Counted from the stretch's first letter, positions 5,343 to 14,632 are shown. The stretch is DNA of 22,782 nucleotides from a virus (IMGVR_UViG_2778261160_000006:1-22782), one strand, 5' to 3'. Numbers and translations: made by a program. Notes: generated by a model from the letters alone, not told the origin.

Positions 5343-5932
5343 AACCCCACCTCGCAGACAAAGCGGGTGTAAATTGAGGGAATACAACGTATCGCAAAAA
5401 AGCAGAAACGTAACAGACTCGGAGTCAGTGAATAACTCAGGTATTGAGTTATCAGCTAATATCGAGACTCAAAAAATGGAAAAACCAGCTCGACGGCGGG
5501 TTTAAGCTGTGTGACGAAGTAACCACTCTTAACAGCATAACCAATTTTTTACGTACGTAAACCACTGAATGATATTTATGAGAATGCTACCGAGTGTTCA
5601 AAACACCACCACAAATACATAAGAAAACCTCAACAAATAACCAATAAATAATTTCCGGCGTTATTTTTAGTTAATTTAAATTAAACCATCGAATTATAGC
5701 CCCCCCCCATAAATAACAGCCATTAATATAAATTAGCTAATAGGTTTATTTTTGTTCAAATAAGAGCCATAAATAGGTTTCGATAGAAAAAGTTCAGATA
5801 AAAATAGAGATCTACTTCACAAATTAAATGAGAAACTAAAACTTACATCTTGAAATAATCACATTGATTAGATGAATATTTATCGCGCAGTGACATCATT
5901 TTTTAATAATAGTTCAAAAAAAAGGGCTCACG

Positions 5933-7015
5933 ATGAAAAAATTAACAGTGGCAATTTCTGCTGTAGCTGCATCAGTACTGATGGCGATGTCTGCTCAGGC
6001 AGCTGAAATTTATAATAAAGACAGTAACAAGCTGGATCTGTACGGGAAAGTTAATGCTAAGCACTACTTCTCCTCTAATGATGCAGATGATGGTGATACT
6101 ACTTATGCCCGTCTTGGCTTCAAAGGTGAAACCCAAATCAACGATCAACTGACTGGTTTCGGTCAGTGGGAATATGAATTCAAAGGCAACCGCGCTGAAT
6201 CTCAAGGTTCCTCCAAAGATAAAACCCGTCTTGCCTTCGCTGGCCTGAAATTCGGTGACTACGGCTCCATCGATTACGGCCGTAACTACGGTGTAGCATA
6301 CGACATCGGTGCGTGGACTGACGTCCTGCCAGAATTCGGTGGTGACACTTGGACTCAAACAGATGTGTTCATGACTGGTCGCACCACTGGTGTTGCAACT
6401 TATCGTAACAACGACTTCTTTGGTCTGGTTGATGGTCTGAACTTTGCTGCTCAGTATCAGGGTAAAAATGACCGCACTGACGTAACTGAAGCTAATGGTG
6501 ATGGTTTCGGTTTCTCCACTACTTATGAGTATGAAGGATTCGGTGTAGGTGCAACCTATGCTAAATCTGATCGCACTAATAATCAGGTTATCTACGGTAA
6601 CAACGGTCTGAATGCTTCTGGTCAAAATGCTGAAGTATGGGCAGCTGGTCTGAAATATGATGCGAACAACATCTATCTGGCCACCACCTATTCTGAAACC
6701 CAGAACATGACTGTTTTTGGTAATAACCATATTGCCAACAAAGCACAAAACTTCGAAGCTGTTGCACAATATCAGTTCGACTTCGGCCTGCGTCCATCCG
6801 TTGCTTACCTGCATTCTAAAGGAAAAGACTTGGGTGTTTGGGGTGATCAGGACCTGGTTGAATATGTTGATGTAGGTGCAACCTATTACTTCAACAAAAA
6901 TATGTCCACTTTTGTTGACTACAAAATCAACCTGATTGATAAGAGCGATTTCACGAAAGCATCTGGCGTTGCTACCGATGATATCGTTGCTGTAGGTATG
7001 GTTTACCAGTTCTAA
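5933..7015 (+). CDS. nmpC: Outer-membrane general porin of the OmpC/OmpF/PhoE family (NmpC / OmpD-like), 360 aa, apparently intact
   Basis: Signal peptide [23 protein letters not shown], the AEIYNKD...LDLYGK porin N-terminus, a beta-barrel-type sequence and the C-terminal ...VGMVYQF motif. It is a moron between Q and the lysis genes, on the opposite strand. Confidence 0.9.
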
Positions 7016-7151
7016 TTTGATTACTAAAAGATATGTTGTGGGAGGCTTTGCCTCCCCAACATATAAGTGGCTCCCTCAAGCCACTTCCTTTAGAAGCACA
7101 ACCTTGCTTCTAACTATACAAACCTTCTGTTATATATTACCCTTTATTTTT

Positions 7152-7177
7152 GGGGGCGTTTCAACGCCCCATTTTTA
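7152..7177 (+). terminator. Rho-independent terminator downstream of nmpC (GGGGGCGTT..AACGCCCC followed by ATTTTT)
   Basis: Perfect GC-rich inverted repeat with a downstream T-run on the + strand; on the - strand the same hairpin is followed by A residues. Confidence 0.55.
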
Positions 7178-7203
7178 ATAACTTTTAGTAAATAATTGGC
7201 GTA

Positions 7204-7602
7204 TTAATTAGAGTTATTAACAACGATATCCATCTCTAACCGGATATCTAATGCCATTAACATCCCTTCAATTATGCCCTCAGCCTTTTGTAACCTTTTC
7301 CCGATATAACCATCAGAGCAGCAATGCTTACCTGCCAGTGACATGAATGTCATACCGACTACATAATAATCTACTAATAAATCGTGCAAATCGCTGTTGT
7401 TCTTTTTCAGACGGGCCATGCACCCGCAAATGATCATCGCGTCATCGTCACAACATTGCGGGCGAGATTTTACTTTTGAAGGAATTAATCCCTTAAAACC
7501 GGCGGCAATGGACGACCAGGTCACATCTTCATGATTATTAGCCGCCCACGCTCCCCAACGCTCAAGAACCATCTGAATATCACGCATCAACTTACTCCAC
7601 AA
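7204..7602 (-). CDS. Q: Late-gene antiterminator Q (phage 82 / DLP12 QuuD type)
   Basis: ...[62 protein letters not shown]... matches QuuD with a Cys-rich zinc-binding region. The true start may be the second Met (7587), giving 127 aa. Confidence 0.85.
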
Positions 7603-7672
7603 AAATCAGACCAGAACGCCAATTACAAGCAAAAATCAACAAAACAGTATTAGTTGATTGTTATCTCTGACT

Positions 7673-13706: not shown

Positions 13707-14632
13707 AAATCCACCCCATAAATCCAGTCAGTGTTTGTCAGGTCCAGTTTTGATTTTCCGGCTGTCACTCCAGCCTGTTGCTTGTTACGGTTGATTTCGA
13801 GTTGGGTCCACTTGTCACGGAGTTTGGCCGGACTTAGCACGTTACCGGACCAGAAGTTGTCCTGGCATGCCCAGCGGAACAGCACGCACATGTCGCGGTG
13901 GTTACGTCCGTCACGTTCACGCATCAGGCGGATATCGTTAGCCCACCCTGCAAAATTCGGTTTTCTGGCTGATGGCGCGATGGTCTTCACCATGTCAAAC
14001 ATCCACTCTGCGGCGGTCAGGTCTTCTGCTGTCCCCCACTTGCTGCCGCTCTGAATCGCAGCATCCGGTTTCACCACAGGAAGGTCGTTTTCTGGCTGGT
14101 CAGAGTATTCGCCAGAATTCTCGGACGAATAAGGTTTTATATTGTCTTTTGTTAGTTTGTCTTTTGTGTTTACCTGATTCGGGTAAGTGCCTTTACCTGA
14201 TTTGGGTAAACTTTTCTTACCTGATTCAGGTAAATTTACCTCTTTCAGGTAAACTTTATTTTTCTTACCTGATTCGGGTAATGTTGACCATTCACTGACC
14301 ACATTATTAATGCCGATATTCCGCCCGCTCTGAATAAAAATCCCACGCTTTACCAGAACACTTTTTGCAGCAGAACACTTGTGCGGCAATATCCCGGTCA
14401 ACTCGGAAAGTTGCTCGTTGCTCACCCAATCCAGTTTTTTATTAAAGCCATATGTTTTGCGCATGACAGCCAGGAAGACCAGAAGCTGGTGCTGTGTTAA
14501 TCCGGCCAGCATCACAGCTTCCAGCAACTCATTTGCAATGCGCGTATAACCATCATCGAGATCTGCCACGCGCGGCTCCTTTTGTGCCGCATCCGGCACT
14601 GGAAAATTGAATATCTCAGCAGTGTTTGCCAT
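13703..14632 (-). CDS. O: Replication initiator O, 309 aa from MANTAEIFNF; lambda-type C-terminal domain with a divergent N-terminal iteron-binding domain
   Basis: The C-terminal ~180 aa (YPNQVNTKDKLTKDNIKPYSSENSGEYSDQPENDL...NTDWIYGVDL) are near-identical to lambda O, while the N-terminal domain is only partly similar. The ORF-track upstream extension is probably not translated. Confidence 0.88.
   Translation of the reverse strand: MANTAEIFNFPVPDAAQKEPRVADLDDGYTRIANELLEAVMLAGLTQHQLLVFLAVMRKTYGFNKKLDWVSNEQLSELTGILPHKCSAAKSVLVKRGIFIQSGRNIGINNVVSEWSTLPESGKKNKVYLKEVNLPESGKKSLPKSGKGTYPNQVNTKDKLTKDNIKPYSSENSGEYSDQPENDLPVVKPDAAIQSGSKWGTAEDLTAAEWMFDMVKTIAPSARKPNFAGWANDIRLMRERDGRNHRDMCVLFRWACQDNFWSGNVLSPAKLRDKWTQLEINRNKQQAGVTAGKSKLDLTNTDWIYGVDL
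14121..14281. repeat. ori: Replication origin inside O: five 17-bp iterons (TTACCTGATTCGGGTAA-like, at about 14170, 14193, 14217, 14236 and 14265) plus an adjacent AT-rich region (14121-14169)
   Basis: Direct repeats with internal dyad symmetry (TTACC...GGTAA) read directly from the sequence, followed in the O reading direction by an AT-rich stretch, the same layout as ori-lambda. Confidence 0.8.

Follow-up and report, generated by a model that had tools for sequence, protein, structure and literature searches.

An intact Lc/NmpC-type porin gene between the Q gene and a homolog of the late promoter PR' in a DLP12-like lambdoid prophage

Porin genes of the Lc/NmpC type are known from phage PA-2 and from the Escherichia coli K-12 prophage DLP12 (qsr'). 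The PA-2 lc record (GenBank J02580; 2,816 bp) reveals the order Rz-R-S, the lc gene on the opposite strand, and the end of Q. In K-12, DLP12 resides at the argU locus, where ybcK, ybcN, ninE, ybcO, rusA, ylcG, and quuD are followed by the opposite nmpC and by essD, rrrD, rzpD, and borD. Most structural genes of DLP12 were lost, and an IS5B element interrupts nmpC 58 nt before its stop codon. Review summaries furthermore describe IpeX, a 167-nt RNA of DLP12 and PA-2 that represses OmpC and OmpF.

A related regulatory arrangement is given by the Q-PR'-tR' (StxS) module of Stx phages such as 933W, H-19B, and Sakai Sp5. Here, the late promoter PR' overlaps the last codons of Q, and the cargo (tRNAs, stx) is located downstream in sense orientation, where it is expressed by late transcription. 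An accessory gene opposing Q-dependent late transcription has been described in phi80 as the TaiEcA/AtiEcA 'non-contiguous operon' (PMC11364771). It lies inside the late unit, and the authors hypothesise that the antisense gene is switched off in the lytic cycle. Finally, Salmonella OmpD and the enterobacterial porins OmpC, OmpF, and PhoE belong to the same Pfam family and mature length class as the porin studied here, which annotation pipelines often label OmpC or OmpD. In contrast to these, our porin is prophage-borne, has another regulatory region and carries the IpeX region in its 3' UTR.

The stretch of DNA analysed as a whole, referred to as the window, comprises 22,782 nucleotides (IMGVR_UViG_2778261160_000006) and represents a lambdoid prophage resembling DLP12. 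In E. coli Z1323HEC0399 (genome H1), a copy with 99.9% identity is integrated at argU, the locus of DLP12, and carries integrase, recombination, replication, nin, Q, lysis, terminase, head, and tail genes. Unlike K-12 DLP12, the prophage of the window has retained its replication, recombination, and terminase genes. The PA-2 lc record is colinear with it throughout (92.7% identity over 2,819 bp), and the PR' core and the IpeX region are present there, too. The features of the locus are collected in Table 1. Gene integrity, family assignment, colinearity with PA-2 and K-12, the terminator, RNA structure, and the homology of PR' together with its uniqueness in the window were computed here; activity of the nmpC promoter (PnmpC), porin expression in lysogens, IpeX function, and the transcription starts of the Stx phages and of K-12 are taken from published relatives.

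Table 1. Features of the Q-porin-lysis region, in window coordinates and ordered from the rusA side to the lysis side.
Feature	Position	Strand	Description and evidence
rusA	8178-7816	-	
ylcG-like short ORF	between rusA and Q	-	
Antiterminator Q (QuuD type, 127 aa)	7587-7204	-	Pfam Phage_antitermQ, E=1e-53
Structured 3' UTR, fits the description of the IpeX small RNA	7016-7180	+	Fold, terminator, identity to K-12
Porin gene (nmpC/lc allele)	5933-7015	+	360-aa precursor with 23-aa signal peptide; full-length Pfam Porin_1
Porin promoter region and 5' UTR	5734-5932	+	Near-identical in window, K-12, and PA-2
Leftward promoters in the porin 5' UTR	5916-5883	-	TATTAT 5911-5906, start ~A5899; sigma-E-like TGAACTA-16-TCACT 5916-5889, start ~5883
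PR' homolog	5561-5534	-	-35 TTTACG 5561-5556, 16-nt spacer, -10 TATGCT 5539-5534, predicted start A5527
Conserved initial transcribed core	5531-5480	-	TAAGAGTGGTTAC..., hairpin CCCGC...GCTGG, T run
S leader	5479-5343	-	Long hairpin and T-rich run ending near 5395 (candidate tR'); hairpin over the S ribosome-binding site ~5372-5347
Holin S (P21/EssD type), dual-start motif MKSM	5342-5127	-	Pfam Phage_holin_2_1; essD annotated in the 99.9%-identical H1
Lysozyme	5127-4630	-	
Rz and Rz1	beyond lysozyme	-	Lysis genes
bor/iss	beyond Rz/Rz1	+	

This arrangement is widespread. Requiring that at least 80% of the segment 5100-7650 (S-porin-Q) be covered, we found it in 2,396 of 5,426 complete E. coli genomes and, at the same coverage, in 36 phage records, including the isolated phages ev099, PhiR70_1, mEp332, and Perceval. 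A few of the 2,396 genomes have IS insertions in the segment. At least 1,000 contigs encode the exact 360-aa porin, annotated among other names as 'porin OmpC' and 'outer membrane porin protein LC', and IMG/VR contributes 460 relatives. All 80 viral loci that carry this porin allele and extend far enough reveal the order S, PR' core, AT region, porin, IpeX, and Q.

The porin belongs to the general bacterial porins. Its ORF matches the Pfam profile Porin_1 (PF00267) from position 1 to 337 of 337 (E=3e-152; 507 bits compared to a curated cutoff of 23.7). Residues 1-23 equal the signal peptide annotated for PA-2 Lc without a difference, the L3 constriction motif PEFGG occupies residues 133-137, and the C-terminus reads ...VYQF with the terminal phenylalanine. 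The solved mature chains of OmpK37, OmpC, PhoE, and OmpF align with it from residue 24 through to its C-terminus; the best solved relatives are OmpK37 and OmpC, with E-values for OmpK37, OmpC, and OmpF of about 1e-136 to 1e-115. Judging from this end-to-end alignment, the protein would form a 16-stranded trimeric beta-barrel diffusion channel. When the IS5 is taken out of K-12 nmpC, the resulting 365-aa NmpC is identical in 332 of 368 alignment columns (90%), and in both prophages the gene lies between Q and S in the same orientation. PA-2 Lc (365 aa) likewise differs from the 360-aa allele in 36 of 368 columns, with 332 identical; apart from a single substitution, the first 148 residues agree, and the differences are bunched in few blocks, which we take to be surface loops.

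No frameshift or insertion was found in the porin gene of the window. Profile match, signal peptide, C-terminus, and the gene's own terminator are thus in agreement with an earlier interpretation made from the sequence alone (the sequence-only reading), by which an intact full-length nmpC/lc-type porin is encoded in opposite orientation to Q and S. The interval of 5388-7203 assigned to it extends all the way from the mechanical ORF of S, which reaches 5387, to the Q stop codon and thus comprises more than the gene (Table 1). The proposed contrast to K-12 holds as well, as nmpC of MG1655 is split by IS5B, and the comparison with the K-12 locus that had been suggested shows the window to be colinear, the net difference of 1,199 bp corresponding to IS5 plus a 4-bp duplication. 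The region upstream of the porin is AT-rich as described, with 28-34% GC at 5450-5900 compared to 45-53% in the flanking phage genes. In summary, the feature is real and intact, and it is already known as the Lc/NmpC/IpeX system of PA-2 and DLP12.

The structured region downstream of the porin had been overlooked in the sequence-only reading. The 165 nt past the stop codon are composed of three stem-loops, an AU-rich single strand of approximately 38 nt, and a terminator hairpin with a T run; the terminator scan gave a match at the hairpin position, 7153-7170. The fold has an energy of -58.5 kcal/mol (z = -7.6 against shuffled sequences). Identity to K-12 amounts to 97.8% across 6974-7643, and the 3' UTR is 95-100% identical in the 80 viral loci. 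Rfam at gathering thresholds returned no match in 5388-7203 and holds no matching family for IpeX. From sequence and fold, 7016-7180 appears to correspond to IpeX, with both exact ends being predicted. This position also agrees with the review descriptions of the RNA.

For the question whether late transcription crosses the porin, the relation of Q to its promoter is decisive. The conserved core of Q in the window ends with ...RLEMD (7228) and is 81% and 78% identical to Q of H-19B and Sp5, respectively, up to LEMD, where the tails diverge. Stx-phage Q proteins have a 24-residue tail, unrelated to that of QuuD, and their last codons contain the -35 hexamer of PR'. The QuuD-type Q of the window ends in a 7-residue tail, which among the compared Q proteins recurs in K-12 QuuD alone. 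To the solved Q21, the protein is only distantly related.

A PR' homolog is located on the S side of the porin. On the minus strand, the 83 nt of 5562-5480 agree to 77% with the segment spanning the end of Q in H-19B, and approximately 290 Stx-phage records match the PR' segment of the window at the end of their Q gene. In Stx phages the -35 sits inside the last Q codons, and the same stretch TTTACG...TAA has been kept beside PR' in the window. In an alignment of the window, K-12, PA-2, H-19B, SfII, PhiR55_1, and cdtI the PR' core is near-invariant. Its 13-mer TAAGAGTGGTTAC occurs a single time in the window, between the porin upstream region and S. One of two CRP-binding sites annotated in J02580 (1067-1087) coincides with the conserved PR' transcribed core. 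Lambda_2E9, which has the Q core in common but no PR' core, contains different cargo (blc, ybgA) and is uninformative with respect to the promoter.

Published start sites were used to assess this assignment. In Sakai Sp5, dRNA-seq placed the PR' start at 1,266,203 and the 3' end of StxS 258 nt downstream (Sy et al., PMC7547250). Applying a 142-bp offset between the genome versions, we found the mapped start 7 nt past the -10 of TTTACG-16-TATCAT and the published 3' end on the T run of the terminator. As both positions fall where expected, the PR' assignment is internally consistent. The -35/-10 spacing in the window equals that of Sp5, and the 55 nt downstream are conserved.

For K-12, Cappable-seq lists starts on the late-gene strand at 572979, 573406, 575093, 575453, 576081, 576452, 576907, and 576971 (U00096.2). 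Position 576452 maps to the A that is homologous to the Sp5 start, with a weak score of 1.7; this start is documented for the K-12 relative. Coordinates of U00096.2 were converted to U00096.3 by adding 777 bp, an offset that agrees with the quuD and essD coordinates. The base match in K-12 is good to about 1-2 nt. A consensus promoter scan missed the PR' homolog, whose weak hexamers agree with the consensus in 8 of 12 positions, just below the cut-off; the PR' call thus relies on homology and on the published start sites. By homology, Q would act at this promoter in the present prophage as well.

The sequence-only reading had assumed that Q-dependent late transcription must pass through about 1.8 kb of antisense nmpC on its way to S. 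This would require a late promoter at or just inside Q, from which antiterminated polymerase reads through IpeX, nmpC, and the AT-rich region, colliding with porin transcription. Such a location would be in line with lambda and the Stx phages, where PR' directly follows Q. The K-12 start 573406 lies inside quuD on the late strand (equivalent to about 7360 in the window) with a score of 9.3, and approximately 300 nt downstream of this quuD start a strong minus-strand hairpin with a T-rich tail (~7063-7026) could act as tR'. However, Stx-phage Q genes carry synonymous changes in the -35-like and -10-like hexamers near the quuD-internal start; this promoter is therefore not a conserved feature, and we do not take it as the late promoter. 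Between quuD and nmpC, Cappable-seq reports no late-strand start site in K-12, and our promoter scan found no promoter-like minus-strand site in 7016-7203. The conserved core, for which a start has been mapped experimentally, is found solely at 5561-5480, and many unrelated cargoes occupy the same gap between Q and this core (see below). On this evidence, we regard a late promoter at Q as unlikely, and the assumption of an obligatory antisense passage is not upheld. The quuD-internal start could still yield an RNA antisense to IpeX.

A second alternative accepts the position of the PR' homolog but regards it as a decayed relic, the lysis genes being driven mainly from the sigma-70 and sigma-E promoters at ~5899 and ~5883, which face porin transcription. 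The strongest K-12 start, 576081 (U00096.2; score 90), maps to 5899, 7 nt past TATTAT, and thereby exceeds the start at PR' approximately 50-fold. Primers of a published lysis-operon fragment spanning '-121 to +650' put its +1 at ~5883, so that the DLP12 reporter was numbered from this site, and the operon has been reported to be RpoE-regulated. Both the -10 TATTAT and the sigma-E-like motif have been preserved in K-12 and PA-2 as well as in the window. The porin transcript is predicted to begin at G5866, upstream of the leftward starts, such that opposing transcripts would overlap by about 20-35 nt. A relic, however, is difficult to reconcile with the conservation pattern: the core is kept at 96-100% in 79 of 80 loci, whereas the AT-rich region from core to porin is the most variable part, with a mean of 92%, which argues for selection on the core. 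Moreover, the lysis-operon paper itself lists the phage Q antiterminator among the regulators. PR' and the upstream leftward promoters may both operate, which makes the latter an addition rather than a true alternative, and even so no polymerase would have to traverse the porin coding sequence. A decayed PR' thus seems quite improbable.

With the PR' homolog preferred as the late promoter, late transcription probably never has to cross the porin. As the cassette lies between Q and PR', late transcripts would be expected to begin some 185 nt before S and to proceed away from the porin. The interference between late transcription and porin expression suggested previously is consequently unlikely to have this source, but the idea of interference as such keeps some ground at the porin 5' end and through early transcription past Q. 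Any interference between porin and lysis side would more likely be head-on at the porin 5' end, where the opposing starts overlap. Early transcription past Q would converge on the porin 3' end, and the hairpin at ~7063-7026 may limit it.

Folding of 5527-5343 revealed two elements composed of a hairpin and a T run between the PR' start and S. The first hairpin after PR' carries a G-to-T stem mismatch in the window allele and in 43 other fetched loci, while K-12 has a perfect CCCGC/GCGGG stem; variation among homologs is otherwise confined to the loop. K-12 lacks 19 nt of the S leader, including the T run after the longer hairpin. A sigma-dependent pause element, considered because of a similarity between the lambda early transcribed region and the core, was dropped as unsupported.

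The porin itself appears to have its own promoter. In K-12, PnmpC has been located within -199 to -1 of the start codon, is active, starts at a G according to 5' RACE, and yields a transcript of sufficient length to reach the gene of the IS5 transposase (PMC11677980); CRP is reported to activate it, and OmpR, IHF, and MprA to repress it. The consensus scan flagged no porin promoter in the window. On the near-identical sequence, an extended -10 TGaAATAAT (5851-5859) with a start at G5866 is predicted. Transcription of NmpC in a lysogen of the related LF82 prophage Perceval was 10-fold over the local background (PMC9928086), and in CFT073 both nmpC copies gave RNA and protein at 37 C (PMC12890032). 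By analogy to these active copies, the suggested expression of the porin from the lysogen is plausible. That the intact porin is nevertheless quiescent in its host, silenced by OmpR, IHF, or nucleoid proteins at the AT-rich upstream region and of little phenotype, could be argued from the reported repressors, the low GC content upstream of the gene, and the title of Prilipov 1998, which calls nmpC a quiescent porin gene in E. coli B, but is highly improbable in view of NmpC transcripts or protein in LF82, CFT073, and K-12 and of an ORF that is undisrupted in thousands of genomes.

Taken together, it is likely that approximately 5563-7227 constitutes a self-contained accessory cassette (moron) of a DLP12/PA-2-type prophage, inserted between Q and PR'. 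It separates elements that are adjacent in related phages, since Q abuts the core in Stx phages as well as in a subset of the IMG/VR loci described below, and it stands out in base composition upstream of the porin. Of its regulatory signals, the terminator was recognised by scan, and the promoter has been mapped in K-12. According to this model, its own sigma-70 promoter would drive an intact general porin (Lc/NmpC allele), whose 3' UTR would yield IpeX and end at the rho-independent terminator, leaving 26 nt to the Q stop codon. Carrying the cassette, a lysogen would gain an outer-membrane porin, and IpeX would lower host OmpC and OmpF; this change may remodel permeability and the display of phage or colicin receptors, which we suggest as the biological benefit of the cassette. 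A literature search on the PA-2 receptor and OmpC exclusion returned nothing usable. As the cassette would be placed between the Q gene and PR', and not between PR' and the lysis genes, Q-modified polymerase starting at ~5527 would read leftward through a leader of ~185 nt with terminator-like hairpins into S, R, and Rz, away from the porin.

This arrangement differs from that of the Stx phages, although the Q cores (78-81% identity), the PR' hexamers, their spacing, and the first 55 transcribed nucleotides are homologous. Cargo in the window lies upstream of PR' and in antisense orientation, and is thus uncoupled from late transcription. Unlike the antisense gene of phi80, the porin would therefore be situated outside of the late transcription unit.

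The position of the cassette is not peculiar to porins. Scanning IMG/VR for the PR' core, we obtained 78 loci, 65 of which have a recognisable Q. In 19 of these 65 loci Q abuts the core, whereas 46 carry 0.6-2.45 kb of cargo between Q and core, in antisense orientation in all but three cases (43 of 46). At least 13 cargo types were distinguished, comprising porin alleles, Kiwa KwaA/KwaB (KwaB E=2e-150, with a membrane partner), a PDC-S20 KAP NTPase, a PDC-M68A-like HNH protein, an alpha/beta hydrolase, lipoproteins, and unknown two- or three-gene sets. The annotated records of SfII, PhiR55_1, and cdtI show the same layout. A literature search for a described Q-PR' hotspot gave nothing usable, phi80 Tai being the only related item. 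We lean towards the view that the gap between Q of this type and PR' is a general insertion hotspot for antisense accessory and defence genes, which would be expressed in the lysogen and insulated from late transcription.

The porin cassette as such is a textbook case of lysogenic conversion, to which the intact copy adds nothing new. The correction concerns the late promoter: models of late-gene timing, lysis leakage, and moron regulation in DLP12-type prophages should put PR' beside S and not beside Q. Should the pattern among the IMG/VR loci hold, searches for new prophage defence genes could conveniently target the Q-PR' gap, and a simple rule may apply to cargo around PR', by which upstream antisense cargo would be expressed in the lysogen and downstream sense cargo upon induction.

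The gap between the antiterminator gene Q and the core of the late promoter PR' (a homolog of the Stx-phage promoter with its initial transcribed region), which holds the porin gene in the window, carries many unrelated cargoes among the 78 IMG/VR loci that possess the PR' core (L091-L168), and these are antisense in 43 of the 46 loci with cargo. Annotated examples are provided by SfII (L006), PhiR55_1 (L007), and cdtI (L008), while cargoes from the IMG/VR loci are listed in the table together with the features of the window. In Lambda_2E9 (L004, 3942-6991), the Q core is 85% identical, and the PR' core is absent. Between Q and the holin gene S, this phage carries a lipocalin gene (blc) in antisense and, beyond it, sense-oriented genes that are ybgA-like or unknown.

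Features of the window and cargoes of the Q-PR' gap in related loci
Feature	Position or locus	Strand	Remark
Hairpin after PR' core	5480-5503	-	CCCGC...GCTGG in window and PA-2
C9 homopolymer	5700-5708		~225 nt upstream of porin start codon
Leftward promoters/starts	5883-5916	-	published K-12 data
Sense-strand start inside Q	~7360	-	K-12 Cappable-seq, score 9.3
Kiwa	L100		gap cargo
PDC-S20 KAP NTPase	L109		gap cargo
PDC-M68A-like HNH protein	L137		gap cargo
Esterase-like hydrolase	L130		gap cargo
Lipoproteins	L133, L150		gap cargo
Unannotated two- and three-gene sets	L094, L096, L110, L141, L162		gap cargo

Within 80 near-identical cassettes, identity reaches 98-99% for the porin, the small RNA IpeX matched to its 3' UTR, the PR' core, S and Q alike. 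Variation within the locus is greatest in the AT-rich stretch 5563-5932 between PR' core and porin, with a mean identity of 92% and a minimum of 83%. Here, the equivalent of the C9 homopolymer comprises 0, 1, 2 or 4-9 C among related loci, which reflects partly A-to-C substitutions and partly length changes; a contingency tract and a sequencing artefact are both possible explanations of the run.

In published K-12 data, a strong start site for leftward transcription (score 90) lies 33 nt before the nmpC start codon. It corresponds to A5899 of the window, where a 1-nt indel makes the distance to the porin start codon 34 nt. A second leftward start, of the sigma-E type, maps to ~5883. As both starts fall within the predicted porin 5' UTR, the promoters would be face to face.

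The start on the sense strand of quuD, the Q gene of K-12, would give rise to an RNA antisense to IpeX, reaching a hairpin and its T-rich tail at ~7063-7026. Promoter-like hexamers near this start are unconserved in Q genes of Stx phages. At the head-gene end of the window or beside it, close to the terminase genes, Rfam reports a full-length match to IS009 (RF02111; 160-358, - strand, 228 bits).

Two 'CRP binding sites' are annotated in PA-2 (J02580). One of them, 1067-1087 (window ~5506-5526; TGTGA-N6-AACCA, + strand), overlies the conserved transcribed core of PR', and its conservation may reflect late-promoter function, not CRP binding.

Downstream of the PR' core, K-12 and most other loci form a perfect CCCGC...GCGGG hairpin, whereas window and PA-2 alike carry a C-T mismatch in the stem. 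This T variant occurs in 43 of ~170 fetched loci and is therefore a common allele; it might allow higher basal read-through towards S. In K-12 DLP12 (L001 ~14340-14360), 19 nt of the S leader are missing. The absent nucleotides, equivalent to window 5389-5407, include the T run of a second hairpin, the candidate terminator tR', and their loss might partly account for the reported basal expression of the DLP12 lysis genes in K-12.
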